The notes under the pieces: generated by a model
Database searches by the model: none
What the model was told of the DNA's origin: nothing
What the model saw: only the letters and a program-made list of their open reading frames with translations
Part shown: positions 1 through 32,000 of the stretch, piece by piece
Layout of the letters: every line of letters begins with the position of its first letter
Position numbering within the stretch: the first letter of the stretch is position 1
Origin: Pirellula staleyi DSM 6068
GTDB taxonomy: Bacteria; Planctomycetota; Planctomycetia; Pirellulales; Pirellulaceae
Direction of reading: 5' to 3'
Assembly: GCA_000025185.1 (NCBI GenBank)
Contig: CP001848.1
Location: 4,800,001-4,832,000 of the forward strand
DNA: 32,000 nucleotides
Position numbers and translations under genes: made by a program

Positions 1-967
1 GGAACATGCCGACCAGAATTGCTGCTGGATAAAACAGCACGTTGCCGCGATGTCCTTCCATGGCATTGGTTGCCCGCGACAAATTGTGATCGTAGAAGAA
101 GCCCGTCAAAAACTCACCATCGGTGGCAATCCCTACGGCGACATACCAAGGCATAGCGATGGCCAGCGACACACACAGTGCCATCACTGGATTCATGTAC
201 CAGCAGGTCCTAAGGAAGTGAACCGGATGAAACACAGCCCACACTTGAGCAGGAAATCGCTTCCACCACACAAGGTGCGAAACGTCGAGTGGCGGTAAGG
301 TTTCGATGAGCAGGAACATCCCGATGCAGGCAGTGGGAATGATCAGCCCAATCGGCCCTTTCGCGAGCATGGCAAAACCCATAGCGCCGTACATCAGCAC
401 CGCGGTCAGCAAATCGGGAAACAAAGAATGACGTCCCGTCGCAGGCTGTTCGGTTGCAACAGGAAAGGTTCGCAGCACATAAATAGCCAGCGACAAAGTG
501 CTCCAAAAAATCAGCGTGGCATCGGGAGTGCAAGCGCGCCCCGCCATGACAAACAGAAGTGAACTACCGATAGCACAGCCAGCCCAGAGTCCCGCTGTTG
601 CACCGAAGAGCCGCCGCCCCATAAGCCAAGTGAGGACCGCCGTTAAAATGGCATAGACCGCCGAAGGCAAGCGGGCCGAGAACTCGCTCACACCGAGGAG
701 CGAATACGAAATCATGATGCTCCAGTACTGGAGCACCGGCTTATGGGTTCGCAGTTCAGCGTTGAAGGTCGGCACAATCCAGTCGCCACGCCCCAGCATC
801 TCGAAGGCGCAATTGGCGTTGCGTGGCTCATCGCGATCCCACAACCGCGGCCCACCGAGGTTCGTGAGCATCACCACGCAACTCACCGCGAGCACCGTGG
901 CCAAATGACGAAGCCATTGCGACTTCAGCCACGATTCCTTGCTCGTCAGGTTTTGATCCATGCTCAT
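1..967 (-). CDS. ArnT/PMT-family (GT39/GT83-like) membrane glycosyltransferase, N-terminal ~322 codons; 3' end lies beyond the window
   Basis: Not in the ORF track because it has no in-window stop. I checked the minus frame starting at ATG 967 and found no tta/cta/tca in that frame down to position 2. The translation begins MSMDQNLTSKESWLKSQWLRHLATVLAVSCVVMLTNLGGPRLWDRDEPRNANCAFEMLGRGDWIVPTFNAELRTHKPVLQYWSIMISYSLLGVSEFSARLPSAVYAILTAVLTWLMGRRLFG. This is the typical N-terminal loop and TM pattern of the ArnT/PMT_2 family, and the protein is polytopic and hydrophobic. Confidence 0.75.
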   Translation of the reverse strand, partial: MSMDQNLTSKESWLKSQWLRHLATVLAVSCVVMLTNLGGPRLWDRDEPRNANCAFEMLGRGDWIVPTFNAELRTHKPVLQYWSIMISYSLLGVSEFSARLPSAVYAILTAVLTWLMGRRLFGATAGLWAGCAIGSSLLFVMAGRACTPDATLIFWSTLSLAIYVLRTFPVATEQPATGRHSLFPDLLTAVLMYGAMGFAMLAKGPIGLIIPTACIGMFLLIETLPPLDVSHLVWWKRFPAQVWAVFHPVHFLRTCWYMNPVMALCVSLAIAMPWYVAVGIATDGEFLTGFFYDHNLSRATNAMEGHRGNVLFYPAAILVGMF

Positions 968-1316
968 TCGCGTCCTCCTTGACGCCAGACCGCCACTATC
1001 TATTCCCGCTACAAGCGTGCGAAGTATAGAGAGGCCAGATGCTGACGCAAACGTCAGTTGTCCAGCAATAAATTGTGCCTGCATGCGACGGACGCTAGCA
1101 CTCAGCAAGCCACATCTTTTGAAAATCTCTTCACAATTACCGAAAAGATGCGTTGCCTCGTTCGCTCCATTGCTGCTATTTTCCCGCACTGCAATCTCGG
1201 CGCGCGCCCCAGCCTCAAGTCTTCCTCATGAAGACATGAGACTAGCGAGCACGACACGCCCAATCACGGATGACTGGACAAAACCGAGAAGCAGACGCCT
1301 TGATGGCGAGGGAATC

Positions 1317-4300
1317 ATGAACGGACTGAGCCCGGTGCAAAAGAAACGAAGCTTCACGTTTTGCGACCTGCTGGCTGCCACTCGCACGCGAGTGATGGTG
1401 CTTGCCTTGTTGCTGCTCGTCGGCAAAGCATCGGCGCAAGATGCTCAGTGGATTTGGTCCCCCGCGCACGAGCCTGGGAGTGTCCCAGCCGACGCCGTGT
1501 GCCACTTCCGAAAAACGATCACGCTCGAATCTCCCGAACAAGGTTCGGTGAGTATCGCAGGCGACGACAATTACGAGCTCTACATCAACGGCCGGCGTGT
1601 CGGTGGTGGTTCCAGCACCGAAAAACTCCAAGACTTCGATGTCACGCGTTTTCTGGGACGCGGCAATAACGTGGTTGCAGTTCGCGCGACAAACAAATCG
1701 GGTGGCACAGCCGCTGTGGTTGTTCGCGTCACGATCAAAGAAAAAGAGGGGGACTGGCAAGCCTTCTCGAGCGACGACACCTGGCGCACCTCGGAACGTC
1801 CTCTCCCACTCTGGAATACCACAATCTACAACGATCGCAGCTGGGCACCTGCTCGCAAGCTCGGTCCTCTCGGCGAAACAGCCCCCTGGGATCGACGCGA
1901 AGATGTTCCTGTCGCTGCCGTCGAGAAAAGCAATCGCTTTGACATCAGCGACGAATTTGAAGTTCAGCAAGTGCTCGATGGTGGCGCTACTGGCTCGCTG
2001 ATCGCCATGACCTTCAATGAATTCGGCCACATTCTGGCGTCGAAAGAAGGAAGCGGCCTGCTGCTGATCCACGATAGCGATGGCGATAAAACCCCCGACG
2101 AAATTCGGACTTGCTGCGACGATGTTAAAAACATCCAAGGGATTCTCGCACTCAACGGTGGGGTCTACGTCACCGGCGACGGTCCCGACGGTATTGGGCT
2201 CTACAAGCTCTCGGACAAAGATCGCGATGGCAAGTTCGAGGATGTTGACACGCTCGTCAAATTCAAAACGGAAGTGGCCGAGCATGGACCACACAGCATC
2301 GCGCTGGGTCCCGATGGTTTTCTCTATGTCATGCTCGGTAACCACACCAGCATCGAAGGGGAATTCGACGAGGAAAGCCCGCACAAGAACTACTACGAAG
2401 GGGATCTGCTCACTCCTAAGTACGAAGATCCAGGTGGACATGCCGTTGGGATTAAAGCACCGGGCGGAAGCATCATCCGTACTGATACCCAAGGAACTGC
2501 CGTCCAAATTGTCGCAGGCGGTCTCCGCAATCCTTACGATTTCTGCTTCAACCGCGAAGGGGAAATGTTCGTCCACGATGCCGACATGGAGTCGGATGAC
2601 GGCATGACCTGGTATCGCCCCACGCGACTGATGCACGTCACTCCTGGTAGTGAATTCGGTTGGCGCAGTGGTTGGTCGAAGTGGCCCGAGTATTACTTCG
2701 ATTCTCTGCCAGCTGCGATTGAAACAGGTCGCGGTTCGCCTGCTGGTATCGTCGCTTACAACCACTTCATGTTCCCCGTTCGCTATCACAACTGCCTGTT
2801 TTCGGCCGACTGGTCGCAAGGACGCATCCTGGCCATCACGATGAAGAAAACCGGCGCTGGATACACAGCGACGAGCGAAGTTTTCCTCGAAGGCAATCCG
2901 CTGAACGTCACCGACCTCGATGTGGGTCCCGACGGCTGGCTCTACTTCTGCACGGGGGGACGTGGCACCGGTGGTGGCATCTATCGTGTCACTTGGAAGG
3001 GCTCGGTTCCAAAAGAAGTGGTGAACATCGGCACCGGCATGACCGCCGTGATTCGTCAGCCGCAGTTGCAGAGCGCTTATGCTCGTCAAAATATTGCAGC
3101 CATCAAAAAACAACTGGGAACAGCCTGGGACACCAGTCTCGCAGGAGTCGCCAAAAGTCCCGCAAATCCGCCGAACTATCGCTTGCAAGCGCTCGACTTG
3201 ATGCAGCTCTATGGACCTGCTCCCGAAGAGACGCTGCTGGTGAATCTTTCGAAAGATCCTAGCGCCGTGGTGCGCTCGAAAACCGTCGAATTGATGGGAC
3301 TCCATCCCACCGCTGCTGTAAGCGAACGGATGGTGGAACTGCTCGACGACACCGATCGCAACGTGCGACGCAAAGCCTGCGAAGCGCTCACACGCTGCAA
3401 ACTCGAGCCACCACTCGAAAAGGTGCTGAAGATCCTAAAATCCGATGATCGCCACGAAGCCTGGGCAGCTCGCCGCTTGCTTGAATCGATGCCGGTCGAT
3501 ACCTGGCGCGACACGGTCCTCGCCAGCGACGATCACCGTGTGCTAGTGCAAGGCGGACTGGCGTTGCTGATCGTCGATCCGCGCAAACAGAACGCCATCG
3601 ACGTGATGCAAAAAGCTCATAAAGAGCTCGAAGCTTTCGTCAGCGATCGCGATTTCCTCGACATTCTCCGTCTGCTCGAAGTCGCCATCCATCGTGGTGG
3701 TGTTTCTGCCGATGAAGTCCCTGGCCTCCGTCGGCAATTGGCCGAAGAGTTTCCAGCGGGCGATCCAGTGATGAACCGCGAGCTGATTCGCTTGCTCGTC
3801 TACCTTGAAGAGTCGACGATTATCGATCGGTATCTGGCTTACTTGTCGAGCGATGTTGCCGACGTTGAGAAACTGCATGTGGCGATGCACCTGCGATTCC
3901 TGAAGTCTGGCTGGACTCCCTCGCGACGCATGACACTGCTGGAATACTACGAAGATGCCAACCAGCGTAAGGGTGGTGGCAGCTATGCTCGCTACATCAT
4001 CAATGCCACGCGAGATTTCACGAAGGATCTGACGGAAGAGGAGTCGGTGGCGGTGCTCGCCAAGGGTGCCAAGATGCCCAACGCTGCACTGGGTGCGCTC
4101 TACAAGCTCCCCGCACAACTCGACGACACGATGATCGATACGCTGGAATCACTCGACAAACAGCTCGAAGGGAAAACGACCGATTCCGTTCAGCGTTTGC
4201 GTGTCGGTATTGTGGCCGTAATGGCTCGTAGCGCCGACGAACGTTCGATGGCGTATCTCCGAAAAGTATGGGAAGCCGATCCCGAACGTCGTCAGCCGGT

Positions 4301-19917: not shown

Positions 19918-20066
19918 ATGAATACGCTTCGAATACGACTTCTTTCAGGATCACTCGCCGCAATCGTTGTTGCGTCGTTTTTGATGACCTGCCCGACGAA
20001 GAATTGCTTCGCGGAGGATTCTCTAGCTTCGCCCAACATCATTCTCATCCTAATCGATGACAAGGT
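19918..20066 (+). pseudogene. Sulfatase gene remnant (signal peptide plus the first conserved motif only), interrupted by IS66
   Basis: AAGGAG Shine-Dalgarno at 19905-19910. MNTLRIRLLSGSLAAIVVASFLMTCP...ASPNIILILIDD is the canonical sulfatase N-terminus. The expected LGYGD continuation is replaced by IS sequence, and no downstream sulfatase sequence appears in any frame. Confidence 0.6.
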
Positions 20067-20144
20067 GTCCGTTCTGCCAACCGCATCTTCGATTTTCGCG
20101 GCTGACCCGTCAAGATTCGGCTTTCTCAATCGAGGAGGCGGGCG

Positions 20145-20492
20145 ATGGCGAAGCAGCAGCGGAGTGGCGAGAGGGAGCAGCGGTGGCGTGATTTGATTGC
20201 GCGGTTTGCAGTTAGCGGCCTGTCGGTGCGGGCATTTTGCCAGCGCGAGCGTGTGCCGGAGTCGGCGTTCTATGCCTGGCGACGCACGCTTCAGCAGCGT
20301 GATCTGGAAGCGACCAGGGCGGCACCTGCGTTTCTGCCGGTTGCCATCCAGCGGCCTGAGCGGGCAACTGTCGCAGAGACTTGCGTCGATTTGCCCGGCG
20401 GCGTGACGATCCGCATCGGGGAGGCGACTTCGATCGAGCGAGTGGCGGCGCTGGTGCGAGCTTTGCGATCGTCGTCGGAGGCCCACGCATGA
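20145..20492 (+). CDS. tnpA: IS66 family accessory protein TnpA (Orf1)
   Basis: WRDLIARFAVSGLSVRAFCQRERVPESAFYAWRRTL matches the IS66 Orf1 HTH pattern. GAGGAGG Shine-Dalgarno lies upstream. Confidence 0.75.
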   Translation: MAKQQRSGEREQRWRDLIARFAVSGLSVRAFCQRERVPESAFYAWRRTLQQRDLEATRAAPAFLPVAIQRPERATVAETCVDLPGGVTIRIGEATSIERVAALVRALRSSSEAHA

Positions 20493-20824
20493 TTGGGCCT
20501 CGTGACGGTTCCACTGCGGCGCAAGTCTGGATCGCCACCGCGCCGGTCGACATGCGCAAGAGCTTCGACGGCCTGGCCGAGATCGTCCGCGCGTTTCTCG
20601 GGCAAGACCCGCTCTCGGGCCACTTGTTCGTGTTTCGCAACAAGTCGAGTCAGCGGCTCAAGATCTTATGGTGGGATCGCGGCGGGCTGACGATCTACTA
20701 CAAGCGGTTGGAACGCGGCGTGTTCCGCTTCCCGTCGACGAAGGACAGCGCACTCGCCGTCGATAGTTCCCAACTGCTGCGGCTGCTCGATGGCCTGGAA
20801 GTTGTCGCGCGCCGGGCGAGCTGA
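20489..20824 (+). CDS. tnpB: IS66 family accessory protein TnpB (Orf2)
   Basis: VWIATAPVDMRKSFDGLAEIVRAFLGQDPLSGHLFVFRNKSSQRLKILWWDRGGLTIYYKRLERGVFRFP is the hallmark IS66 Orf2 sequence. The start is Met37 of ORF 20381..20824. Confidence 0.9.
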   Translation: MIGPRDGSTAAQVWIATAPVDMRKSFDGLAEIVRAFLGQDPLSGHLFVFRNKSSQRLKILWWDRGGLTIYYKRLERGVFRFPSTKDSALAVDSSQLLRLLDGLEVVARRAS

Positions 20825-20887
20825 GTCTTTTTCAAAAACTCTTTCGGCCGGCGAAACTTTTCACGCTCATCGCGCATATAGTCATGC

Positions 20888-22498
20888 ATGAGCACAGACG
20901 TTCCAGCGAGCATCGATCCCTCCACGCTGCCCGATGATCCGGCGCTCTTGAAACGGATGCTGATTGAGCAAGGCCAGCATTTGATCGAACGCGATGCGAT
21001 CATCAATCGCATCCGCGAAGAAGCCGCGCAGCGCGAGCGATTGGAAGCCGAGAAGAAGGCCGCCGTGGAAGCGATCCTGCGGCGGTTCTACGGGCCGAAG
21101 AACGAGCGCTTCGATGTGCGGCAGTTGCTCCTTTTTGGTCAGCAAGTCGAACAACAGCCGCTCGATGAAGCCAGCATCAACGCAGAAGCGGGTGAAAGGC
21201 TCGTCACGCGGCGGATCGCCAAGAAACACAAGCACGGCCTCCATCCGCTGCCGGACCACCTGCCTCGAATCGACGTCGAGCACGACCTCTCCGAGGATGA
21301 GAAAAAGTGTCCCTGCTGCGGCGAGGCGCGCTGCCGCATCGGGCAGGAAGTGAGTGAGCAGCTTGAATACCTGCCGGCCAGCTTCAAGGTGCTGCGGCAC
21401 ATGCGCCACAAGTACGCCTGCCGCAAGTGCGACGCCGAGGGTTACAACCCGAACATCGCCGCGGCCAAGAAGCCGGCGCAGCCGATCGACAAGGGCTTGC
21501 CCGGCCCGGGCCTCCTGGCCTATGTCATCGTCAGCAAGCTTGGCGATCACTTGCCGCTGTACCGCCTGGAACACATCTTCGCGCGGCAGCAGTTGCATGT
21601 CGCTCGCAGCACGATGTGTGCGTGGCTGGCGGCAACAGGCGAACTCGTTCGTCCGCTGGTGGAGTTGATGATTCAGCGGGTCCGGCTCTCGCGGGTGATC
21701 CACACCGACGACACGCGGGTGCCGATCCAAGCGCCGGGCGAAGGAAAGTGCCGCAGCGGCCGCATCTGGACCTACATTGGCGACGGGGCGCATCCCTATA
21801 TCGTCTATGACTACACGCCTGACTGCACCCGCGCGGGACCCGCCAACTGGCTGCGGGATTACAAAGGCTATCTGCAAGCGGATGCGTACGGCGGCTACGA
21901 CGGGATTTATCACTCGGGCGCGATTGAAGTCGCCTGCTGGGCGCATGCGCGCCGCAAGTTCTTCGAGGCCAAGGACACGGACGGCAAGCGCGCCGCGCAG
22001 ATGCTCTCGTTCGTCCGCGCGTTGTACGCCGTCGAGGACGATGCCAAGCAACTCAGTAATGACGAGCGCCGCGATCTGCGTCAAGTGCGAAGCGTGTCGA
22101 TCCTGGCCGACATCAAAGCCTGGCTCGATGGTGAGCGCGAGATCGTCCTGCCGCGCAGCCCGATGGGCGAGGCGTTTACATACACGCTTAACCAGTGGGA
22201 AGCCCTCAACACGTACACGCGCGAAGGGTTTCTCAATATCGACAACAATGCGGCCGAACGGGCGCTGAAGCGGGTGGCGATCGGAAGAAAAAACTGGCTG
22301 TTTGCCGGGAATGACCGCGCCGGCGGCACCGCAGCCCTGTTGTATTCGCTGATCGCAAGCGCCGAGCGCCACCAACTCGACCCGCAACGCTACCTGACCA
22401 GCGTCCTGGCCCGCCTCCCCGCCCTCCCGCCAAGCGACGTCAACAAGTTCCTGCCCGACGCCTGGAAGCGCGCCGACGTCGACGTGACGTCGAGCTGA
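20888..22498 (+). CDS. tnpC: IS66 family transposase TnpC
   Basis: Zinc-finger region CPCCGEARCRIGQEVSEQLEYLPASFKVLRHMRHKYACRKCD, LPLYRLEHIF, HTDDTRVP, AHARRKF and NNAAERALKRVAIGRKNWLFAG. Confidence 0.92.
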   Translation: MSTDVPASIDPSTLPDDPALLKRMLIEQGQHLIERDAIINRIREEAAQRERLEAEKKAAVEAILRRFYGPKNERFDVRQLLLFGQQVEQQPLDEASINAEAGERLVTRRIAKKHKHGLHPLPDHLPRIDVEHDLSEDEKKCPCCGEARCRIGQEVSEQLEYLPASFKVLRHMRHKYACRKCDAEGYNPNIAAAKKPAQPIDKGLPGPGLLAYVIVSKLGDHLPLYRLEHIFARQQLHVARSTMCAWLAATGELVRPLVELMIQRVRLSRVIHTDDTRVPIQAPGEGKCRSGRIWTYIGDGAHPYIVYDYTPDCTRAGPANWLRDYKGYLQADAYGGYDGIYHSGAIEVACWAHARRKFFEAKDTDGKRAAQMLSFVRALYAVEDDAKQLSNDERRDLRQVRSVSILADIKAWLDGEREIVLPRSPMGEAFTYTLNQWEALNTYTREGFLNIDNNAAERALKRVAIGRKNWLFAGNDRAGGTAALLYSLIASAERHQLDPQRYLTSVLARLPALPPSDVNKFLPDAWKRADVDVTSS

Positions 22499-22500
22499 CT

Positions 22501-22788
22501 TCACCTCAACCGCTCGTACGAGTACTCGGCGTCAATAATCTTGCTACCGAGCGGATCGTCGTGCGGCCAAGTGTCACTTACCACATGCCAAAGCCCAGGT
22601 ACCGGTTGCCGTTCTGAACGATCCAGAGCAGCGATCATTTCATCCAGACTGGAGGCAATCCAGCGGAGGTTACGCTCAATGTCGATGGCCGGTTGCCCGG
22701 CCTCGCATTTCGCGAGTTCCGCGTGAACTCCGGAACGTGCTTCCTGGAGTAGCGATCGAACACGTTCTACTTGTTGGTTGGTGCTCAT
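22501..22788 (-). CDS. Small helical protein, putative immunity partner of the upstream toxin-like ORF
   Basis: I place the start at MSTNQQVERVRSLL (ATG 22788), which overlaps the TGA of the upstream ORF as ATGA. The longer track ORF (22501..22935) would overlap out of frame. I recognise no family for it. Confidence 0.45.
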   Translation of the reverse strand: MSTNQQVERVRSLLQEARSGVHAELAKCEAGQPAIDIERNLRWIASSLDEMIAALDRSERQPVPGLWHVVSDTWPHDDPLGSKIIDAEYSYERLR

Positions 22789-23150
22789 GGCTGAACCAGT
22801 CCGGTCCTCCAATCGAGTATAAACTTCTGAACTTGGCCGCCCGGTAAATACGCGCCCTGAGCGGCGGCGCGTCCCTGGATTATTGGCGTGCCGGGTGTGA
22901 TCTGGAACTGACGGAAGCCCGTCATCGCGTTCCATTCGGGCTTGAGAGCGAGACTCGAACGCGAAGCGGGAAACGTCTCAAACAACCACTGGCCAGCGGT
23001 TCTCGACGGGTCCGTATAGTAACGAATACCGTACTCGGCATTGCCAGCATGACGGAACGAAACGGTTCCTTCCTCAAACGCCTGCAAATAACGGACGCGC
23101 TCGGCCCGCGGGACGCCCATTTCTTGCAGATACTTCGACGCCTGCCGCAC
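22785..23150 (-). CDS. Orphan polymorphic-toxin C-terminal-domain-like ORF (no N-terminal delivery region)
   Basis: GTG start only; the frame opens just after a TAA and reads AFRDPHCGRPDEIYGG-VRQASKY.... The pattern GIRYYTDPSRTAGQWLFETFPASRSSLALKPEWN...FQITPGTPIIQGRAAAQGAYLPGGQVQKFI recalls TNT/NADase-type toxin ends (R...GxW/YL...R..LAL.P...G..A.QG..PGG..Q). The family assignment is unverified. Confidence 0.45.
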   Translation of the reverse strand: MRQASKYLQEMGVPRAERVRYLQAFEEGTVSFRHAGNAEYGIRYYTDPSRTAGQWLFETFPASRSSLALKPEWNAMTGFRQFQITPGTPIIQGRAAAQGAYLPGGQVQKFILDWRTGLVQP

Positions 23151-23234
23151 ACCGCCGTAAATCTCGTCCGGCCGACCGCAATGTGGATCGCGGAACGCTT
23201 ACTTTATGCGGATACATTGAAGAAAGAGACACTA

Positions 23235-24065
23235 ATGAGCGATGCAAGTTTGCCCGCGAGTGCGCAGCCAGTTGAGCCGAACCGCGAGGAGCGATGGTGG
23301 ATTGAGCGCGATGGTCGGCAAGATGGCCCTCACATCGCTGCCTACCTCGCGGTGCTATTGCGTGAGGGAAAGATTTCGCTCGCGACTATGACCTGCAAAG
23401 TTGGCGCGACCGACTGGCAAGAGTTGCACGAGAGCGACCAGCTCCTCAGCACCCTACAATCGATGATGCCGGGCTTCATGCCGCCGCCGATACACCAGAA
23501 CCGACTTGACCTGGCAATCTTCTCGTGGATGAAATCCAAGACCACTTCCAAGAAACTACCATCCTTCGCCAACGCCATCTGCTTCTATGGGCTGGTAGTG
23601 AATCCGCTCCTGTCGCTCGTCTTGAATTTTCTACTTCCATGCCTCAGCGCCGACTGGTCCTCGATCTCCGGAATTGATCCCAATTCCCCGCTAATTGGGT
23701 ACGCACCCATCTTGAGCTTCATCGAAACCACAATATTCCTTTCTCTCAACGTTGCTTTGATTGTTGGGGCCTACCAGATATTGCAGCTTCGCCCGATTGG
23801 AGCCACCACCATCGTAGTCACCATTGGACTCAGGACCGTGATCGACCTGATCAGTCTCCTCATCAGTTTCGTCTGGCTGGCACTGATCGAAGTAAGTGGC
23901 CACTCCCTCCCCACTGATCCCGAGCCCTCCATCGGATTCGGCGACCTAATCGCGGGCCTGCTCCTCTTAACCATCATTCTTGGATCCATCGCCTTCGAAG
24001 TCACCTCCCTCATCTGGCTCCTCCGCAATCGCTTCCGAATTCCGCATGATCGACGAACCGAATAA
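23235..24065 (+). CDS. GYF_2 (DUF4339)-domain protein with a multi-pass hydrophobic C-terminal half
   Basis: I place the start at MSDASLPASAQ (ATG 23235); the upstream part of the track ORF is antisense to the toxin-like ORF. WWIERDGRQDGPHIAAYLAVLLREGKISLATMTCKVGATDWQEL fits the GYF_2 pattern, and several TM-like segments follow. Confidence 0.65.
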   Translation: MSDASLPASAQPVEPNREERWWIERDGRQDGPHIAAYLAVLLREGKISLATMTCKVGATDWQELHESDQLLSTLQSMMPGFMPPPIHQNRLDLAIFSWMKSKTTSKKLPSFANAICFYGLVVNPLLSLVLNFLLPCLSADWSSISGIDPNSPLIGYAPILSFIETTIFLSLNVALIVGAYQILQLRPIGATTIVVTIGLRTVIDLISLLISFVWLALIEVSGHSLPTDPEPSIGFGDLIAGLLLLTIILGSIAFEVTSLIWLLRNRFRIPHDRRTE

Positions 24066-24226: not shown

Positions 24227-24871
24227 TTAACTCGCGACAATCGTGCGCTGCTGGTCGATAATCTGCGAGATGTCGCTTGGCACGTTCTGCGTGAAGTTCG
24301 ACCAGTTCCCAGTGGCATCCAGATCCCATCGCTGCTGCAGCGCCGGACTGGTGATCGTTTGATGATCGTTTGACAGCCGACCACGATGGAACTTCTTCAG
24401 TCGCTGCAGGCCATCGTATTCATAGAGCTCGTCAAAATCTTTGTCGTAAGACTGGGCGACCAAGTCTTCCTTGTAAGTCCGACTCGACGAACGGTTATAG
24501 CCATACTTGAGATGCACCAAGCTGCTGCCCGATCCTGAACTCGACGAAGAGGACGAGCTGCTCGCACCATAGTTTGCCCACCAGTGGTCGATCACGCGGC
24601 CGAAGCCTGCGTAGGGATTCGCGCCACTTCCGAGCACATAGTCGAGCTTGATCTCGGGCTTCAGGTAGTCGGTGGTTACGAAGGTCGACAGCCCGAGGTA
24701 GGAGTACTGGCACACCTCGGTCGCATCCTTGCTGAGCGTGCGAACGCGCGAGAGATTGTCAGCTACCGTGTCATCGTACGAGTACGACAGCACCTCGCCA
24801 CTGGGATAGGTCATGCTCGTGAGGCGAATCGTATTATCACTCCCATTCTCATAGCTATAGCCGACCTTCGG
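24227..24871 (-). pseudogene. Internal Rhs/YD-repeat gene fragment, paralogous to 27721..28355 of the main rhs gene
   Basis: PKVGYSYENGSDNTIRLTSMTYPSGEVLSYSYDD...NFTQNVPSDISQIIDQQRT aligns residue for residue with the large Rhs protein. It then diverges (IVAS-stop). It has no native N- or C-terminus. Confidence 0.8.
24246..24871. repeat. Copy A of a dispersed direct repeat (~626 bp) shared with the main rhs gene
   Basis: By-eye nucleotide alignment to 27721..28355. The copies are colinear with scattered substitutions and one 9-nt indel. Confidence 0.85.
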
Positions 24872-25042: not shown

Positions 25043-25972
25043 CTAGAATATCTCGTGAGAAATTTTGCCCTCAGGCGAAATATAAAAGTTAAGCGCGAAG
25101 TTTGCTATCATCATGAAGTAGCCTGTAAAGTCACCTTGGTGAGTTGGGGGAGCAAGTGAGGGAATGTTCACCAGTGCGAAATCATTCCCCAGGTAAGGAT
25201 AAAACTCTAGGAGCGAGAAAAGGAACGCACCTGCATCGGGGGGGCGGTTGCGAATTCCTTTTCGTGGGCCATCGAGAGAAAGTGAATTTCCGCCGATTTT
25301 GGCACCGAAGGAATGTCGAAAGTTTGCATGAAATTCAGGAAGTAATTCGTTGCTTGTGATACCTAATTGTTTCAAGCATTTCTCAGCTTCGGCGATGGTG
25401 AAATCTTCAATTTCCAATACTTGATATGGAGACCCGAAGAAAACAGCGTCGGTAGCTAAGGGATAGTTGTTAACTGTGTGCAGCGCACTAACGCTACCAA
25501 GAGAGACCCACTCGAAACAAAAAAAGGCATCGTCGTCTATTGTTAGTTGGTCTATAGTATCTCGAGTAAATATTAATAAGACATCCCCTGGAAGCTTCTT
25601 GTCAAATAGGTGCTCGGATCCCAAGAAGCAGATTTGAGCGAGATATCTACAGTGGGTTCCAAAGCGTCTAGGCCATCGAGCTTTTGTGTCGAAATATGGC
25701 AGACCACCAATCTTTGTTCCCCACGGAACACTCGGTTCGCGAAGGCCCCACAGGAATAGCGTAGTGGTCTTTGCGCGATGCTGTCCTAGTATGTCAACGC
25801 ACTTTCGCACATAGTAATCATAGAGTACCAGCGCATGAGGATTGTCAATGCACAAACGCTGGCATGCAGATTGAGGCTCCGCCACGCTGACTTGAAGTAG
25901 ATTTCTCCATGCCTCAATCTCTTGGCGAGAGGGCATTTCATTGTTGCGGCTTTGCGTTGCTGATGCGTTCAT
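25043..25972 (-). CDS. DUF1963/YwqG-like protein; candidate immunity protein for the Rhs toxin
   Basis: WGTKIGGLPYFDTKARWPRRFGTHCRYLAQICFLGSEHLFDKKLPGDVLLIFT, plus a second FGAKIGGNS...GDFTGYFMMIANFALNFYI block, mirror the two-block DUF1963 pattern (SKFGGxPxxP...LLxQIn...GxLxFF; KxGGY...GDxGxxxFFI). The gene is markedly AT-richer than its neighbours and is the next gene downstream of rhs on the same strand. Confidence 0.55.
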   Translation of the reverse strand: MNASATQSRNNEMPSRQEIEAWRNLLQVSVAEPQSACQRLCIDNPHALVLYDYYVRKCVDILGQHRAKTTTLFLWGLREPSVPWGTKIGGLPYFDTKARWPRRFGTHCRYLAQICFLGSEHLFDKKLPGDVLLIFTRDTIDQLTIDDDAFFCFEWVSLGSVSALHTVNNYPLATDAVFFGSPYQVLEIEDFTIAEAEKCLKQLGITSNELLPEFHANFRHSFGAKIGGNSLSLDGPRKGIRNRPPDAGAFLFSLLEFYPYLGNDFALVNIPSLAPPTHQGDFTGYFMMIANFALNFYISPEGKISHEIF

Positions 25973-26243: not shown

Positions 26244-29200
26244 TTATGCATCGCAGTTTGGAGGACATGGTTCTATAATAAGCATTGGAGGTAGAATCAG
26301 TATAAATCTAGGTAAGGCAGTAAGTGATGCCAGGAGCAGTGAGGGCTGCCAGAATGGTTTCGGTGGCGCCGAAGGTGGGACTGGTCTGACCGGAACAGGT
26401 CTGAGAGCAGGGCTGCAGGGTGGGATATCAACTGTCGGATATCGATATCTAACAGGCTTGCGCACAGGAACTGGTCGCTTATTATCCTGCAGGGGAGGGG
26501 GGCAGGCTTTTGCAATTAGCTCCAAAAATTCGCGATCGCGATTTTCTCCCGTTGAGTAGTTTATGAGCTCAATTGATGGAATCGAAATTTTTAGGTGCGA
26601 GAGAGCAGCTAGCATTCCGATTCTCAAGTTGTTTATTGCTATAAGGTATTGGCAGCACGATGCTCCCACAGCTTTTAGCTGTGCGATTGTTATGTCATGC
26701 CAGTATTGATATTTCAACTTGTATTCAACGGTATAGTGTGCACCTTGGCTGCTAGCGCTTAACTCGCCTAGTTCCGTAGTAAAGTCATCAATGTTGAAAT
26801 TTAGTGGTGGCTTGCAAAATGAGTCGGCCACGCTTTGGCCAAATTCCGTTCTTTGTCCAATCTGGCGAAACCAGTGGTGCCTTGATTTTCCAGATGGATC
26901 ACTATGTATAAGCGGATAGTTTTCAACATATCGATAGAGTGCCCTGTCGTTGTTCAAGTAACCAATTGGGTCTCTATTAATCCAGTTCCCAAGCTTGGAG
27001 TGTAGAATTCGAAATCGCACATGAGAGAGGTGGGTGTTGAGTTCGAGGTAGTAGCTGCAGTAGAGTTGGTTCCAGGCGTAGGAGTTGGCGGCGGTAACGA
27101 AGGCGGTGTCGAGGGAAGTGGGAACGCCGTAGGGGTCGTAAACGAATCGAGTGGTAAGTTTGTCTAGGACCGTATCGGGATAGTAGAGCGCAACCATGTT
27201 CCAGTTGGCGTCTTGCAGGCCATAGATTCGTTCATCGAAAGGATCGGGTGGCGAAGTGCTGCGGTCGCGGAGGACAAGGTCGTCGATGTAACGCAGGCCC
27301 CATGTTTGCTGACGCTCGACGATCATTGTGGGTGTCGAAGAACTTGATGACGAGGATGAAGAACTGCTGACGGGTTCGGGCTGCTCAAGCCGTTCTTCAA
27401 TGTCCTGCCAGATGCTGGTGTAATAGTAGTGGCGATAGGCTAGTTCACTGCCCAGCGATCCCACAGGAGTGCCAACCTTGATGCGCCAAGTTTGGCCGCT
27501 GTACTCATTCTCCTGCACAGTCTGCCAAGCGTCGGACTCATCTTGCTCCTCGAGTTTGACCAGTCGATTCCAGGGGTCCCAGGTGGCGCGATAGGCAATA
27601 TCCATCACCTTGGGCTGCGGAATCATCGTCATGTTGCCGTTGCGGTCGTACAATGGCGCGGCCCACTCAGGGCCAACCGTGCGAGCAATCGCAGTGATCT
27701 CGTTCACCGTGTTGCTAGTCCGCTGCTGATCAATAATCTGCGAGATGTCGCTCGGCACGTTCTGCGTGAAGTTCGACCAGTTGCCCGTCGCATCCAGATC
27801 CCATCGCTGCTGCAGCGCCGGACTGGTGATCGCTTGATGATCGATGGACAACCGACCACGATGGAACTTCTTCAGTCGCTGCAGACCGTCGTATTCATAC
27901 AACTCATCAAAATCTTTGTCGTAAGACTGGGCAACCAAGTCTTCCTTATAAGTCCGGCTCGACGAGCGATTATAGCCATACTTCAGATGCACCAAGCTGC
28001 TGCCTGATCCTGAACTCGACGACGAAGAAGAGCTGCTCGCGCCATACGCTGTCCACCAGTGGTCGATCACGCGGCCGAAGCGATCGAAGCCTGCATAGGG
28101 ATTGGCGCCACTTCCGAGCACATAGTCGAGCTTGATTTCGGGCTCCAGGTAGTCGGTGGTTACGAAGGTCGACAGCCCGAGGTAGGTATACTGGCACACC
28201 TCGGTCGCATCCTTGCTGAGCGTGCGAACCCGCGAGAGATTGTCAGCAGCCGTATCGTCGTACAAATACGACAGCACCTCGCCACTGGGATAGGTCATGC
28301 TCGTGAGGCGAATGGTGTTATCACTCCCATTCTCATAGCTATAGCCGACCTTCGGTGTGCCCGCATCAACCGCTCCGTCGTGCTCCTGGTACTGCTCGAC
28401 CAACTGCCCAAAGTCGTTGTAGGAATTCTGCACTTCGTTGACAGGTGCTGTGCCCGAGGTGTCACTGAAGCTGGTGATTTTCTCGACCAGTCCCCGCACA
28501 TCGAACGTGGCGCCGATCCGCAGCACACCATCATCGACGCCGCTGGCGAGCGTGGTGACGGTGTCAGCCGTCTGCCGCCCGAGCTTGTCGTAGCTGTAGC
28601 TATGCACCGAGCCGTTTTGATCGCGCATGGTCTTGCGCTCTCCTTGGCGGTTGTAGCTGTACGTGACGCGGTCATCGGCATCAGCCGCGTCGGGATAAAT
28701 CTCCGCGGAAAGCAAATCGTTCGAGGCGATATCGGAACCGCCTGCCGTCGTCACTTTGTATTCATACCGCGTCGTCTGGTCCCCGGTCAAAGGATTTTTG
28801 GCGATCAGTGCAATCAGTTGCCCGCCAGGACCATACTGCATCTCGGTCGTCACGTTCTCTTCTGCCCCCGGGCAGGAGCATTCACTGCACGCTTCATGGC
28901 CGCAAGCATCACAGTCGCACGGAACATAGTTCTGGATCGTGCGAACCGTCCGTCCCGCATCATCAGCATCGACATGGCTGACCATGCCGCTCGGGTCCAC
29001 ACTTTCAAACGCCTCACCCCGGGCATTGTACCGCGAGAGGCTCACAAGCACCTCGTCGCTCGACGCTGGTGCAATGCTCGGCCGCGTAGGGGGACCGGCG
29101 TTATCGTTGGTGCCATAGCTGGCACTGGCAATCGAACGACCGATTCCATCGTACCACATCGCCATGTAGCTATCGCGACTTTTCGGCTCCGAACCACTTG

Positions 29201-32000
29201 GCCCCTGCAAACTGCCGGTTCCTGTCGCATTATGAAACCGCTGACGGCTGGTGGCAAACAGCACGTTGCTGGCATTGTCGTAAAGCGTTTCCGATTGCTC
29301 AAAAATCGTATCCCCGGTGACCGTGAGCGCATCGGCGTAACTGGTCTCTGAAGTGTCGTAGCCGGTGAACGTCGCTGTCGATCTTCCCACGCCGTCGTAG
29401 AACGTCTTGCTAAACGCCTTGCTCCCAGCAGGCTGTAGCTTGGCCACATTCCCCCGTGCGTCGTACCAGGTCTGATCCACCAGGCTGTTGCCAATCGAGC
29501 CGCTGGATGGATTCACGGCATACGTGATCGACTGATAGACTCGGCCCAGATCGTCGTAGAGCGTTTCCTGCTTGCCGAGAAGGGTTCCACTGCTGGTGGT
29601 GTTACGCCTTTGCGTGACGACGACTCGATCGAGATTGTCGTACTCATACTCCATGTAGAGGTCGATTTCGCCATCGACCGAGATTCGGCGATTCCGCCAA
29701 TCGTAGGTATACTCGGTCACACGATCGTCGCCGCTGGTGCTATTGACGTGCTGCGTTTCGCGGGTCAAGTTCCTATCGCCGCCACCTGTGCCACCATCAT
29801 ACTGATAGGAAGTGATTAGTCTCGATTCGGATATGCTTCCACCAGCGTTGAGGTAATTGACGATTGTAAGTGCATCAAGCGGAGTGACAACACCGTTACC
29901 ACTGACGTCATAATAAGGGGGTGGTGGAGGAGGGTTGACTGGTGGCTCAGGAAGCGTAGTACTGCCTGGGTTTGCGTTCAAGAAATTAATTACAAGAAGT
30001 GCATCGACATCCGTCACCTCGCCATCGTCGTTGACATCCAGGCGATTCACTTGATTTTGCCACGACCTGCCTGGAGTTCCAGGGAACTCTGTATCGATCG
30101 CAGCACTCCGAGAAATCGGTAGTCCTCGAACGTCAAAAATCGTGGTAGAGACAGAGCCACTTGCGCTCATCACATAATTCTGTCGCCCCATCGAATCGTA
30201 GCGGTAGTAGGTTCGATTGAAGTTGACATTCTTTTTCCCGAGTCCCGACTCAGGAATGTCAAAATAAACATCGCTACTTACAAGCTGACTCTTGTCGTTG
30301 TAAGTGCTGGTGCTCCACCGAACGTAGGACGACTGCTCGAACGTATCACTTGCGAGCAATAGTCCCGGGCTGCTAGTGCTGGTGCCCCGCGTGGCCTGGA
30401 TTTGCTGGACCGGACGCCCGGCATCGTCGCTCTTGGTGATCGAAATGGGGTTGTAGAGCGTGTATTCGCTATGGGCGGAGCCCGAGGCATACCCCTGAGC
30501 AGACCGCACTTCTTCGAGGGTATCGAGATAAAGCGTATTGGAGATGGTTCGCACACTCGTGCTAACGCCATCGATCACTGCATCATGGATGGGACCCTGG
30601 CTTAGCGTCGTTCTGCCAAGCAGATCGATAGAGTAGTCGGTTGTAAGGTGGAGGCCACCACCAGCGGGAGTGCTCCAGCCACTGGGAACTGACAACTGGG
30701 TATCGTCCACATCCACAATCGACTGGACGAGGGCCCCGGTCGCTACATCATAGCCCTGATTGTTGATGTACCCCGCTTCATCTCGAGTCCATATCAACTC
30801 CCCAATCACGCTGTAGCGCTCGGCTCGCGTATTGGAACTGTTCGAGCCATTTTGAGCCGTTGGAATCGCAGGTAATGTGGTTACTCGCTCGAGGATGGCA
30901 GGGAGAGCCGACTGCCAAGTGTAGCTGTAGTTGGTCTCCACCGCACCCGTGCCGTTATCGTTGCGGAATGACTTATCTTGTGCTGGGTAAACAGTCTCGG
31001 TCACTACCGTCCGGCGGAAGTACTTCATTTCCTGGAGGGTGATCGGCGTTCCACCAGTTCCTCGCTTGATCTTCTGCGATTTCTTATAGCCCTTGACGTC
31101 GCCCGCTTGGCTTGGTGACGAAGTGGTGCCGGTGATGGCCGTAGCTGTGGTTGAGGTTGGGTATTCGTGCAGCTCAATCAGGCCGTCACTGCTGTAGAGC
31201 GAAACCGAAAGTGGGGCGCTCGTGCTGCTGAGTGACCAACTTTGGACTGCCGAAGAATTCGCGTGGCTGATCACCCGAGCGGAAGTGTCGTACTCAAAGA
31301 AGTTGCACCAGCTTTGGCTTGTGGTGGCGTCTTCGAGCACATGCAGAATCGCTTGTCCGATGTAATTGGTGAAGACGGTGACGATCGAGTTGTCAGGCTG
31401 CGTCATCACCATGCGGACACGCCACTCGTTGAGGTCATCAACGAGCGTGCCAGTGCGATTAGTGAGAGCGAACGAATACTCGCGAGCCCCACCCATCACC
31501 ACTTCTCGCGTCACCTGCTGATTGGAATCGTATTCCAGGCGATAGTCGGCAAAGGGATCAAGCTCTGACGAATCGGCCCAAAGGGGGTCAATTCCAGCAA
31601 GTACTGCGCGGCGGTACGACTCTGGACTGAGCACGTACCAAAGTCCATGCTGAAACCCGACGCCGTCCGCTGAGTCAATGTAATAGCGATAGTAGTGGGT
31701 CTTGGGATCTTCCCATTCAGAACCATTCCATCGCTCCGAGACCGTCATCTTCAGATCGTTGAGGCTGCCATAACCATCCGTCCCATCGTAGTACTCGTAG
31801 CTGCATCGCTGGATGTTCTGATACGGTCCGCTTCCAAGTCGTCGCTCCAGCGTTACCGATGTGAGCAGGGCGCCACTGTAGGAATAGGAATATTTTTCCG
31901 TGTAGTACAACATGCCATCGCTGTAGGTTTTCTGAACCTCGGCGATCGAACTGCTCGTATAGGAGGTAACTTCGAGAAGCTGTCCACCGGACATCGTTGC
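26244..32000 (-). CDS. Rhs/YD-repeat polymorphic toxin (partial; N-terminus beyond the window)
   Basis: Many YD repeats (YEYDNLDRVV, YDDLGRVYQS, YDARGNVAKL, YDGVGRSTAT, YNRQGERKTM, YDKLGRQTAD). The RHS-associated core end is FVYDPYGVPT...NWINRDPIGYLNNDRALYRYVENYPLIHSDPSGKS. The frame stays open from Met 31994 to the window edge. Confidence 0.9.
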   Translation of the reverse strand, partial: ATMSGGQLLEVTSYTSSSIAEVQKTYSDGMLYYTEKYSYSYSGALLTSVTLERRLGSGPYQNIQRCSYEYYDGTDGYGSLNDLKMTVSERWNGSEWEDPKTHYYRYYIDSADGVGFQHGLWYVLSPESYRRAVLAGIDPLWADSSELDPFADYRLEYDSNQQVTREVVMGGAREYSFALTNRTGTLVDDLNEWRVRMVMTQPDNSIVTVFTNYIGQAILHVLEDATTSQSWCNFFEYDTSARVISHANSSAVQSWSLSSTSAPLSVSLYSSDGLIELHEYPTSTTATAITGTTSSPSQAGDVKGYKKSQKIKRGTGGTPITLQEMKYFRRTVVTETVYPAQDKSFRNDNGTGAVETNYSYTWQSALPAILERVTTLPAIPTAQNGSNSSNTRAERYSVIGELIWTRDEAGYINNQGYDVATGALVQSIVDVDDTQLSVPSGWSTPAGGGLHLTTDYSIDLLGRTTLSQGPIHDAVIDGVSTSVRTISNTLYLDTLEEVRSAQGYASGSAHSEYTLYNPISITKSDDAGRPVQQIQATRGTSTSSPGLLLASDTFEQSSYVRWSTSTYNDKSQLVSSDVYFDIPESGLGKKNVNFNRTYYRYDSMGRQNYVMSASGSVSTTIFDVRGLPISRSAAIDTEFPGTPGRSWQNQVNRLDVNDDGEVTDVDALLVINFLNANPGSTTLPEPPVNPPPPPPYYDVSGNGVVTPLDALTIVNYLNAGGSISESRLITSYQYDGGTGGGDRNLTRETQHVNSTSGDDRVTEYTYDWRNRRISVDGEIDLYMEYEYDNLDRVVVTQRRNTTSSGTLLGKQETLYDDLGRVYQSITYAVNPSSGSIGNSLVDQTWYDARGNVAKLQPAGSKAFSKTFYDGVGRSTATFTGYDTSETSYADALTVTGDTIFEQSETLYDNASNVLFATSRQRFHNATGTGSLQGPSGSEPKSRDSYMAMWYDGIGRSIASASYGTNDNAGPPTRPSIAPASSDEVLVSLSRYNARGEAFESVDPSGMVSHVDADDAGRTVRTIQNYVPCDCDACGHEACSECSCPGAEENVTTEMQYGPGGQLIALIAKNPLTGDQTTRYEYKVTTAGGSDIASNDLLSAEIYPDAADADDRVTYSYNRQGERKTMRDQNGSVHSYSYDKLGRQTADTVTTLASGVDDGVLRIGATFDVRGLVEKITSFSDTSGTAPVNEVQNSYNDFGQLVEQYQEHDGAVDAGTPKVGYSYENGSDNTIRLTSMTYPSGEVLSYLYDDTAADNLSRVRTLSKDATEVCQYTYLGLSTFVTTDYLEPEIKLDYVLGSGANPYAGFDRFGRVIDHWWTAYGASSSSSSSSSGSGSSLVHLKYGYNRSSSRTYKEDLVAQSYDKDFDELYEYDGLQRLKKFHRGRLSIDHQAITSPALQQRWDLDATGNWSNFTQNVPSDISQIIDQQRTSNTVNEITAIARTVGPEWAAPLYDRNGNMTMIPQPKVMDIAYRATWDPWNRLVKLEEQDESDAWQTVQENEYSGQTWRIKVGTPVGSLGSELAYRHYYYTSIWQDIEERLEQPEPVSSSSSSSSSSSTPTMIVERQQTWGLRYIDDLVLRDRSTSPPDPFDERIYGLQDANWNMVALYYPDTVLDKLTTRFVYDPYGVPTSLDTAFVTAANSYAWNQLYCSYYLELNTHLSHVRFRILHSKLGNWINRDPIGYLNNDRALYRYVENYPLIHSDPSGKSRHHWFRQIGQRTEFGQSVADSFCKPPLNFNIDDFTTELGELSASSQGAHYTVEYKLKYQYWHDITIAQLKAVGASCCQYLIAINNLRIGMLAALSHLKISIPSIELINYSTGENRDREFLELIAKACPPPLQDNKRPVPVRKPVRYRYPTVDIPPCSPALRPVPVRPVPPSAPPKPFWQPSLLLASLTALPRFILILPPMLIIEPCPPNCDA
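26247..26882 (-). other. Variable C-terminal toxin domain of the Rhs protein (212 aa after DPSGKS), family not recognised
   Basis: RHHWFRQIGQ...PLNFNIDDFTTELGELSASSQGAHYTVEYKLKY, then a Pro-rich stretch (RPVPVRKPVRYRYP...RPVPVRPVPPSAPPKP), then a hydrophobic tail SLLLASLTALPRFILILPPMLII. Composition turns AT-rich from about 27010 downward. Confidence 0.6.
27721..28355. repeat. Copy B (~635 bp) of the repeat, inside the intact rhs gene
   Basis: See copy A. The extra 9 nt (gatcgaagc context, encoding DRF) sit in a short cgaagc direct-repeat context. Confidence 0.85.
29839..30038 (-). other. Dockerin-like / EF-hand-like repeat pair embedded in the Rhs protein
   Basis: DVNDDGEVTDVDALLVINFLN, a PPVNPPPPPP linker, then DVSGNGVVTPLDALTIVNYLN. 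Confidence 0.6.

Follow-up and report, generated by a model that had tools for sequence, protein, structure and literature searches.

A putative toxin-tip/immunity gene pair as a probable passenger of an IS66-family element in Pirellula staleyi

Introduction

Homologous recombination with silent orphan cassettes is regarded as the source of diversity among polymorphic toxins such as Rhs and CdiA, and the movement of new tip/immunity pairs between unrelated genomes and carriers is poorly understood. We describe here a toxin-like and an immunity-like open reading frame (ORF), named ORF A and ORF B, of Pirellula staleyi DSM 6068, which together are probably a passenger module of an insertion sequence (IS) of the IS66 family. 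Pair and element are located in a 32,000-nucleotide stretch of contig CP001848.1, referred to below as the window; all coordinates are those of the window, and the pair and its coding sense are on the minus strand. Orphan C-terminal toxin (CT)/immunity modules of rhs and cdi loci are mentioned in PMC10539506 and were reportedly the subject of work by Poole et al. in 2011 and by Koskiniemi et al. in 2014. They keep a core-coding stretch for homologous recombination and stand in tandem downstream of the main gene. The window pair resembles such modules as a toxin tip without delivery domain, with its putative cognate immunity gene, near an rhs locus, and as a potential source of tips. Unlike these modules, it is bounded upstream by an IS terminus and would be mobilisable by transposition.

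Toxin/immunity pairs of the NAD(P)+ glycohydrolase (NADase) type, orphan cassettes, and IS66 elements with passenger genes are each already known separately. With respect to predicted fold, ORF A is closest to the toxin domain of Tse6, the partner of Tsi6 (Tne1 family, Pseudomonas aeruginosa), and related NADase tips matched by its fold belong to the pairs Tne2-Tni2, Serratia Rhs1-CT-RhsI1, and Mycobacterium tuberculosis TNT-IFT; the matched effector structures are the reference set discussed in PMC10539506. As in the Tse6-type systems, members of the ORF A family stand at the C-terminal end of carriers such as Rhs and PAAR proteins and are followed directly by a small immunity gene, and ORF B, like Tsi6, is predicted to be a helical bundle of about 95 residues, the similarity being weak. 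Unlike Tse6, Tne2, Rhs1-CT, and TNT, to which it is 13-19% identical, ORF A matches no curated hidden Markov model and no PDB sequence and would represent a separate family; unlike Tse6-type toxins, the window copy is without any carrier.

IS66 elements carrying passengers downstream of the DDE transposase gene (tIS66) are documented, and they account for seven of the 25 Pseudomonas IS66 entries in ISfinder, including ISPa75-fosZ (PMC12888890). The window element is similar to ISPa75-fosZ in the order tnpA-tnpB-tnpC, in the position of the passenger between the DDE gene and the right repeat, and in termini of the type GTAAGCG/GTG.... Unlike ISPa75, it carries a polymorphic-toxin tip plus immunity gene instead of a resistance gene, and unlike tIS66 elements its passenger ORF begins inside the repeat, without a start or promoter of its own, and no target-site duplication is seen. 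Two-gene toxin/antidote modules as conserved transposon parts are also known from the toxin-antitoxin (TA) pairs of the Tn3 family (PMC7157771), which differ in transposon family and toxin classes, being type II TA pairs by the resolvase/transposase promoters, whereas the window module is a polymorphic-toxin cassette at the end of the element. In the limited literature that was searchable, no polymorphic-toxin tip was found as IS cargo, and the only precedents were tIS66 and TA pairs in transposons. A conserved tip/immunity cargo at an IS66 end, exchanged with toxin loci, thus appears to be new.

Results

The gene pair lies inside an IS66-family element

A sequence-only reading of this DNA had described a 121-codon ORF with a GTG start and a following 95-codon helical ORF, overlapping at ATGA, and this was confirmed on the minus strand, the model of ORF B being all-helical. 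The features of the pair and of the element around it are listed below. The labels L001, L017, and so on denote contigs of metagenomes or metagenome-assembled genomes (MAGs) that carry ORF A-type domains, and dN/dS is the ratio of nonsynonymous to synonymous (dS) divergence, computed for the window against the closest copy, L001.

20065..23202, plus strand: complete IS66-family element with passenger genes (tIS66-type), 3,138 bp; from homology to L001, from the ends of L017, and from the repeat pattern
20065..20086, plus strand: left inverted repeat (IRL), GTGTCCGTTCTGCCAACCGCAT; 21/22 match to the toxin-side repeat of L001, and repeat pattern
20145..20492, plus strand: tnpA, 115 aa; from the ORF, a weak HTH_Tnp_1 match (E 7.8e-4, below cutoff), its position, and an ATGA overlap with tnpB
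20489..20824, plus strand: tnpB, IS66 Orf2-like, 111 aa; PF05717 TnpB_IS66, E 1.8e-35
20888..22498, plus strand: tnpC, DDE transposase, 536 aa, apparently intact; PF03050 DDE_Tnp_IS66, E 7e-86, profile 1-282/284
22788..22501, minus strand: ORF B, immunity-like protein, 95 aa, ATG start; from identity to Psta_3697, synteny, helical model, and dN/dS
23150..22785, minus strand: ORF A, Tse6/TNT-like toxin domain, 121 aa from an internal GTG, frame open up to 23198; from fold, conserved motifs, and dN/dS
23181..23202, minus strand: right inverted repeat (IRR), GTAAGCGTTCCGCGATCCACAT, holding the TAA (23201-23199) that bounds the ORF A frame on its upstream side; from repeat comparison and pattern match

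The element thus reads IRL, tnpA, tnpB, tnpC, the convergent ORF B/ORF A pair, and IRR, and includes the three genes of IS66 in their usual order. TnpC carries in addition the domains zf-IS66, LZ_Tnp_IS66, and DDE_Tnp_IS66_C, and both the position of tnpA and its ATGA overlap with tnpB are typical for IS66. IRL and IRR, identical to each other at 15 of 22 positions, agree with the terminal inverted repeats of IS66 elements, for which a start with GTAA... is typical, and a degenerate repeat pattern was matched in the window only at 20065-20086 (plus strand) and 23181-23202 (minus strand). A vestigial right repeat between tnpC and ORF B was ruled out: the stop codon of ORF B is only 2 nt from that of the convergent tnpC, and the pattern is absent there.

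Contig L001 contains five genes in the same order as the window, and encodes relatives of ORF A (93%) and ORF B (91%). DNA homology between the two (79%) is confined to 23197-20065, with no relationship between the flanks. The repeat on the toxin side of L001 matches the window IRL at 21 of 22 positions (blastn, 95.5% over 22 nt, L001 141-162 against 20065-20086 reversed); the 21/22 and the 15/22 identities were counted by eye. L017, a Planctomycetaceae MAG contig of 3,253 bp, extends exactly from one repeat tip to the other, and such a repeat-to-repeat contig is what an assembler makes from a multi-copy element. Because the homology to L001 and L017 spans tnpABC as well as the pair and ends at the repeat tips, the pair is assigned to the IS66 element, and we consider it probable, with good but not full confidence, that ORF A and ORF B are a passenger module of an apparently intact element at 20065..23202.

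The divergence from L001 was nearly the same for the three genes (dS of 0.836 for ORF A, 0.828 for ORF B, and 0.845 for tnpC), indicating that transposase and pair diverged together. The dN/dS was 0.054 for ORF A and 0.057 for ORF B as compared with 0.234 for tnpC, so that the pair is more constrained than the transposase. With a dN/dS of about 0.05 at a dS of about 0.83, strong purifying selection acts on the cargo.

Other Planctomycetota contigs have the same arrangement: toxin and immunity genes followed by an abutting, convergent tnpC were also found in L001, L017, and L081, and 3' remnants of tnpC stand behind ORF B in L091 and L093. Between L017 and the window, the identity is 49% for the toxin, 38% for the ORF B-like protein, and 64% for TnpC. 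The distance of the repeat tip was scored upstream of the conserved Tyr codon of the toxin for about 65 loci listed. A tip at 38-57 nt was present only in L001, L017, L019/L074, L065, L089, and L090, and the remaining loci listed (about 55) have no repeat tip and carry conventional "LPNPYAG" linkers. In a plasmid collection, only three distant matches were found, none of them linked to IS66.

Several of these loci show further particulars. In L019 (1240..2957; identical to L074), a second IS66 element (IRL GTAAGCGTCCGGTGAACCGCAT, tnpA, tnpB, and truncated tnpC) is nested inside the IS-borne toxin gene. L090 and L091 share a CTTTCAATTACCCACA segment between repeat-like sequence and toxin, which in L090 lengthens the junction by 15 nt and moves the tip from -42 to -57. 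Behind the tnpC remnant of L091 stands an IS4/Tn5-like transposase gene. L086 (5001..6904) contains a degraded, frameshifted toxin gene with an intact ORF B homologue, and 143 nt downstream a canonical IS66 right end (GTAAGCGTGTTCCCAACCGC, at about 5812; its own IRR is GTAAGCGTGTTCCC...) with convergent tnpC. This arrangement is possibly the precursor state of a cargo-carrying element.

ORF A and ORF B belong to conserved families

On the coding strand, the stop of ORF A and the start of ORF B overlap as ATGA (TCAT at 22785-22788 of the plus strand). The ORF A frame extends beyond the GTG without a stop as far as the TAA at 23201-23199, with the reading AFRDPHCGRPDEIYGGVRQ; the GTG itself, at 23150, is a conserved Val codon of the toxin domain. 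ORF A has 24 close relatives, and a profile built from these detected 461 cluster representatives at 50% identity, 140 of them at E<=1e-30. For ORF B, which is 100% identical to the P. staleyi DSM 6068 protein Psta_3697, close relatives were few and the profile search found 14. Homologues of ORF B adjoin the stop of ORF A homologues (at it or within a few nt), often with the ATGA overlap, on unrelated contigs, and such a homologue was present downstream of the ORF A homologue in about 45 of 93 loci (tblastn, E<=1e-3). Reading of the sequence gave no obvious ribosome-binding site at proper distance for ORF B itself. The relatives of both ORFs and their conserved order, together with the purifying selection noted above, confirm that ORF A and ORF B are both true genes and members of conserved families. 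As homologues of ORF B sit directly behind those of ORF A, ORF B is, on the evidence of synteny, taken as the cognate immunity family of the ORF A-type toxin domain. The ATGA overlap and the conserved synteny likewise bear out the proposal of a translationally coupled toxin-like/immunity-like pair.

Proteins from many phyla, the longest of 4001 aa, were found to end with the ORF A domain, and they carry N-terminal parts such as RHS_repeat, PAAR, DUF6531, TcdB_toxin_midN, and PT-TG. The ORF that encodes the domain in L002 and in L093 also encodes, ahead of it, the Rhs core end TIGR03696 (E 5e-17 and 2e-19, respectively), at a spacing of about 30 residues in L002 and about 210 in L093, and in MAGs of Blastocatellia, Akkermansia, Flavobacteriales, and Verrucomicrobiae the upstream frame is open for at least 2000 codons. 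Relatives at the C-termini of polymorphic toxins, which the toxin-like call implied, do therefore exist (Rhs, PAAR, and PT-TG carriers), and the location of the domain behind such parts of giant proteins indicates that it is a bona fide polymorphic-toxin C-terminal domain. ORF A represents an unnamed family of such domains. The window copy is without carrier or delivery domain, as the sequence-only reading had it.

The AlphaFold2 (AF2) model of ORF A (predicted local distance difference test, pLDDT, 81.8; predicted template modelling score, pTM, 0.76) was compared with known structures by Foldseek. The best match was Tse6 (4zv0_A, E 1e-7, TM-score 0.71), followed by Serratia Rhs1-CT (6xtd), Tne2 (6b12), fungal NADases, and M. 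tuberculosis TNT (4qlp), and the top 19 PDB matches were all NAD(P)+ glycohydrolases. The ADP-ribosyltransferase-like NADase fold shared by Tse6, Tne2, Rhs1-CT, TNT, and AfNADase is thus also that of the ORF A model. The family has an invariant LFxxFPAxR motif (LFxTFPASR, with the Arg in FPASR) and a near-invariant GGQxQ. Toxins of the TNT/Tse6 type have catalytic and NAD-binding residues (an Arg plus Gln/Asp) at the cleft, and this Arg and GGQxQ may correspond to R780 and Q822 of TNT. The model supports a common NADase fold of ORF A with TNT and Tse6. The suggestion of a TNT/NADase-type toxin end therefore holds at the level of predicted fold (Tse6, Rhs1-CT, Tne2, TNT), and finds no match among family models. 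Because neither a curated model nor a PDB sequence was matched, ORF A is filed as a fold relative, its membership of TNT or of Tne1-5 being not established. The AF2 model of ORF B (pLDDT 91) is an all-helical four-helix bundle with no DNA-binding domain.

The toxin frame in the window is displaced by one nucleotide at the repeat

Alignment of the junctions between repeat and toxin gave the following features upstream of ORF A.

23170..23171, minus strand: 1-nt insertion, GGCCGG as compared with GGC-GG/GGC-AG in relatives; from the junction alignment of the window, L001, L017, L089, and L093
23203..23247, minus strand: flank with in-frame starts (ATG 23217, TTG 23247) for the ancestral frame through the repeat; codons read from the sequence
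23247..23074, minus strand: 57-aa out-of-frame ORF reading MHRSLVSLSSMYPHK|VSVPRSTLRSAGR...; from the ORF list

The distance from repeat tip to Tyr codon is 42 nt in L001, L017, and L089, and 43 nt, determined by hand, in the window. In the three relatives the toxin frame runs through the repeat to its tip (VSGLPTALRSADEIYGG in L001, VSVPQTASRTADEVYAG in L017, and VSVPRSTLRTADQIYGG in L089), and the repeat DNA of relatives reads VSVPRSTLR(S/T)AD(E/Q)IYGG in the frame of the toxin. Due to the insertion at 23170/71, the window toxin frame reads the repeat out of register above this site (AFRDPHCGRP, AFRDPHCGRPDE), and the ancestral register MYPHK|VSVPRSTLRSA..., from the ATG at 23217 in the flank, now enters the 57-aa out-of-frame ORF. 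The weak DPxG-like junction that the sequence-only reading saw at the start of the toxin frame is AFRDPHCGRPDE, that is, inverted-repeat DNA read out of frame, and the resemblance is therefore an artefact. The TAA after which the toxin frame was said to open is indeed present; it belongs to the terminal GTAAGCG of the element. Upstream of the repeat, the cassette has no start codon or promoter of its own.

Two further ideas on the junction were rejected. A conserved frame through the repeat as a design is not significant, frame 0 being kept in only four of seven IS-borne copies, and the likeness of the repeat peptide PRSTLR to the native linker RSGALR of L092 is too short to interpret.

Related cassettes are fused to polymorphic-toxin genes

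In L093 and L089, repeat and cassette are fused in frame to upstream ORFs, and no transposase genes are present. The L093 ORF (P0047), open from the start of the contig, encodes a TIGR03696 core end, about 200 aa, a linker, and the toxin, and is followed by ORF B and a tnpC remnant. The linker, LAGPRSTLRTADE, is encoded by a degraded repeat, TTGGCCGGTCCGCGTTCCACATTGCG. The remnant is a 3' piece of tnpC of about 75 nt, whose reverse translation is GMPRSDVGKLPHDAWNWIDAHVTSR, while the window tnpC ends ...PPSDVNKFLPDAWKRADVDVTSS* (blastn, E 2e-4). In L089 (P0002), an intact repeat, GTATCCGTTCCGCGATCCACC, separates the toxin from an upstream ORF (64 codons or more) with a PT-TG-like motif, ILPMGKGLLKGATK...ADDVADVARV. 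The two loci share 80% identity over a stretch that begins about 5 nt inward of the repeat tip and ends 8 nt beyond ORF B; further upstream they are not related. No Pfam match was obtained for the pre-toxin regions of L089, L092, and L093. Downstream of the cassette, in flanks otherwise unrelated, an 18-nt motif, AAAAAGGACAGGCATAAT, is identical at L089 1024-1041 and L093 1720-1737; a similar motif, GGACAGGCAT, occurs once more in L089 (at about 925), and it may be a small repeated element.

L092, a 73% relative, is a conventional orphan array with no repeat. Its region 1..4022 includes an AHH nuclease tip with Imm11 and then two modules, each opening with PLPGGGWVEWY(D/E)DG(H/Y)SWWY, the first of which ends in an ORF A-type toxin plus immunity gene.

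Two clades of IS-borne toxins can be distinguished, both of them nested among conventional tips: the clade of the window is 71-73% identical to its nearest conventional relatives and that of L017 66-68%, while the two clades are 49% identical in the toxin and 64% in TnpC. As each clade is nearer to conventional tips than to the other, at least two captures or cargo exchanges must have occurred. With respect to L093 and L089, we lean toward transfer from the IS to the toxin gene, because the repeat of L001 is a near-perfect copy of the other end of the element and is hard to explain as a toxin linker. The reverse could also hold, L093 being a donor locus from which the IS captured the cassette and L086 a precursor. 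That the repeat is the scar of an IS once located upstream in the Rhs gene was rejected, as the toxin lies on the inner side of the repeat. Beyond the direction of single events, we tentatively suggest, as a minority view among several, that this IS66 lineage shuttles toxin tips: as the cassette stands at the extreme end of the element and lacks a start codon, insertion into an Rhs or other polymorphic-toxin gene, with orientation and frame both fitting, would give a chimeric toxin and the matching immunity in one step, and the transposase genes would be lost later.

Neighbouring genes and the Rhs locus of the window

On the left side, the element is flanked by a truncated gene.

19918..20064, plus strand: left flank, 49-codon N-terminal fragment with signal peptide and ...PNIILILIDDK, cut by IRL; from the ORF, no Pfam match

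By its PNIILILIDDK motif, this fragment may be sulfatase-like. On the right side, at 23235..24065 (plus strand), lies a gene for a GYF_2-domain protein (weak Pfam match, E 5e-4) with a hydrophobic C-terminal half; the end of the IS is 32 nt upstream of its likely ATG, and the insertion may have replaced the promoter of this gene.

The main Rhs protein of the window is encoded at 26244..31994 (minus strand). It contains dockerin type I repeats (residues about 653-716) within the YD-repeat body and the TIGR03696 core end; the sequence HSDPSGKS, noted in the sequence-only reading, is present (...IHSDPSGKS) and is followed by an uncharacterised tip of about 215 aa. A 309-aa ORF at 25043..25972 (minus strand), with a weak DUF1963 match, is presumably the immunity gene of this main Rhs. 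At 24227..24814 (minus strand), a 195-aa ORF is nearly identical to residues about 1231-1426 of the main Rhs protein; this duplicated internal piece stops at ...QIIDQQRT without a tip, and looks like the stump of an orphan module.

Discussion

Proposed action and role of the cargo

As judged from its modelled fold, ORF A would hydrolyse NAD(P)+, and by analogy with Tsi6 and Tse6 the four-helix ORF B may bind ORF A and block its active site. The ATGA coupling would ensure that immunity is made whenever toxin is made. Since the cassette provides neither a promoter nor a start codon upstream of the repeat, its expression would depend on transcription and translation reading in from the flank through the repeat. 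From the window copy, at most a toxin trimmed to the GTG at 23150 plus ORF B would be made, and its expression would be weak at best.

For the role of the cargo, we rank first a selfish addiction-like or immunity-conferring module travelling with the IS, although addiction-like or selfish stabilisation in itself is given well under an even chance. A mobile reservoir that trades tip/immunity cassettes with Rhs and other polymorphic-toxin genes is ranked second, at slightly lower weight, and spread of immunity alone appears unlikely. Neutral hitch-hiking takes the remaining weight, and the low dN/dS argues against it. These weights are subjective and overlapping, and do not sum to one. The idea of a reservoir for toxin switching, put forward in the sequence-only reading, survives in the second of these roles, with a transposon in place of an orphan cassette as the vehicle.

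Weighing of the alternative readings

A set of observations weighs against the picture of an active toxin/immunity passenger. With respect to the element, no 8-bp target-site duplication was found at the window (ATGACAAG vs TTTATGCG) or at L001 (AATGATTC vs AATCACTT), and the continuation of the left-flank gene is absent from the other side, so that the two flanks are mismatched; a later IS-mediated rearrangement or recombination between IS copies may have occurred. With respect to expression, a scan of 22300-23500 for sigma-70-type sites and terminators returned neither a sigma-70-like promoter nor a terminator, and the 1-nt insertion uncouples the toxin domain from the frame through IRR, so that this copy may be silent. 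Toxin genes are damaged in the IS-borne L019/L074, L090, and L065, which is awkward for a strict addiction role. With respect to the proteins, no exact match to ORF A exists in the protein collection searched (best, 93%), neither ORF A nor ORF B matched a model of Pfam (TNT included), NCBIfam, or PADLOC, for ORF A even at E<=1, and a PDB-sequence search with the ORF A family profile gave nothing relevant. The NADase assignment is one of predicted fold, at the low identity to its matches given above. For ORF B, the Foldseek match to Tsi6 (4zuy_B, TM-score 0.67, probability 0.97) has a weak E of 0.7, and the top match is an unrelated helical Fe(II)-binding protein.

Could the pair be something other than an IS66 passenger? 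We give hardly any credence to the possibility that neither ORF is real, or that a 144-aa frame, which is indeed present at 22935..22501 (minus strand), is the real gene with a coincidental ATGA. When ORF A, ORF B, and the 144-aa frame were scanned against Pfam, NCBIfam, and PADLOC, only sub-threshold noise was obtained (CATRA-C, E 0.0075; arcadin-4, E 0.01-0.03), and the CATRA-C match, which could be counted in favour of the 144-aa frame, belongs to it. All 14 homologues of ORF B, on unrelated contigs, align from the Met of the 95-aa frame and none has an N-terminal extension; gene callers on other contigs predict homologues of 95-113 aa, the stretch ahead of the ORF B Met encodes, in another frame, the conserved C-terminus of ORF A, and both AF2 models are confident. 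Also very improbable is an origin along the lines of the sequence-only reading, in which recombination displaced a tip/immunity cassette from its rhs gene and left it as an orphan downstream of the main rhs locus, a silent reservoir with IS66 as an incidental neighbour. The main Rhs gene and its truncated duplicate at 24227..24814 do lie on the same strand in the window, the ORF A family is genuinely Rhs C-terminal, and a conventional orphan array with a close relative exists (L092). Upstream of the pair, however, there is no Rhs-core homology or core-coding stretch but an IS66 terminal repeat, with the toxin on its inner side; the pair lies between tnpC and IRR and has no tandem place after the rhs pair, and the plus-strand gene at 23235..24065 separates it from the nearest Rhs fragment (24227..24814). 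In other organisms, moreover, it is co-linear and co-diverged with tnpABC between unrelated flanks.

When the pair is accepted as IS66 cargo, two other accounts of its function compete with an exchangeable polymorphic-toxin cassette. It may, at clearly less than even probability, be a type II TA or abortive-infection module, that is, a cytoplasmic NADase with labile immunity and no intercellular antagonism, serving to stabilise the IS or replicon or to kill phage-infected cells. The lack of a delivery domain or signal, the tight coupling of the genes, and the strong purifying selection on both in IS contexts without carrier fusion are in agreement with such a module, and NAD+-degrading TA toxins exist (RES-Xre, MbcTA). 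The antitoxin of a type II TA system is labile, usually DNA-binding, and autoregulating; here the toxin gene comes first, the modelled antidote lacks a DNA-binding domain, and PADLOC gave no match. Nearly all members of the family form the C-terminal tips of giant secreted-toxin proteins, the pair lacks a start codon and a promoter of its own upstream of the repeat, and the toxin damage in several IS-borne copies also stands against the TA account, for which TA pairs as integral passengers of Tn3-family transposons and other mobile elements are a precedent (PMC7157771, PMC12548467). Alternatively, and with about half the weight given to a TA module, only the immunity gene may matter: the IS would spread protection against NADase tips of neighbours, and the toxin would be untranslated baggage, needed at most for coupling. 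ORF B is intact and alone of the pair has an exact protein match (Psta_3697), the N-terminal extension of the toxin is frameshifted here, and toxins are damaged in several relatives; orphan immunity against foreign Rhs NADases has been shown experimentally in Serratia, and mobile immunity arrays are known in Bacteroidales (PMC10539506). Against this account, the toxin is as constrained as the immunity gene (0.054 vs 0.057), which is unexpected for untranslated DNA, and ORF B has no obvious ribosome-binding site of its own.

Implications

The reading that we prefer, a toxin-tip/immunity passenger of an IS66 element, adds to the catalogue an unnamed family with a NADase-like predicted fold (461 clusters at 50% identity) together with its immunity family. 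ORF A is a protein-coding gene with no exact match in the public protein record searched, although the Planctomycete genome in which it lies is well known. Should the cargo act as an addiction module, this would be the IS-level counterpart of the TA pairs of Tn3 transposons. As the cassette is carried by an autonomous transposon, is under selection, and occurs both free in IS copies and fused in frame to Rhs-type genes, transposition becomes a testable route for the exchange of toxin tips.

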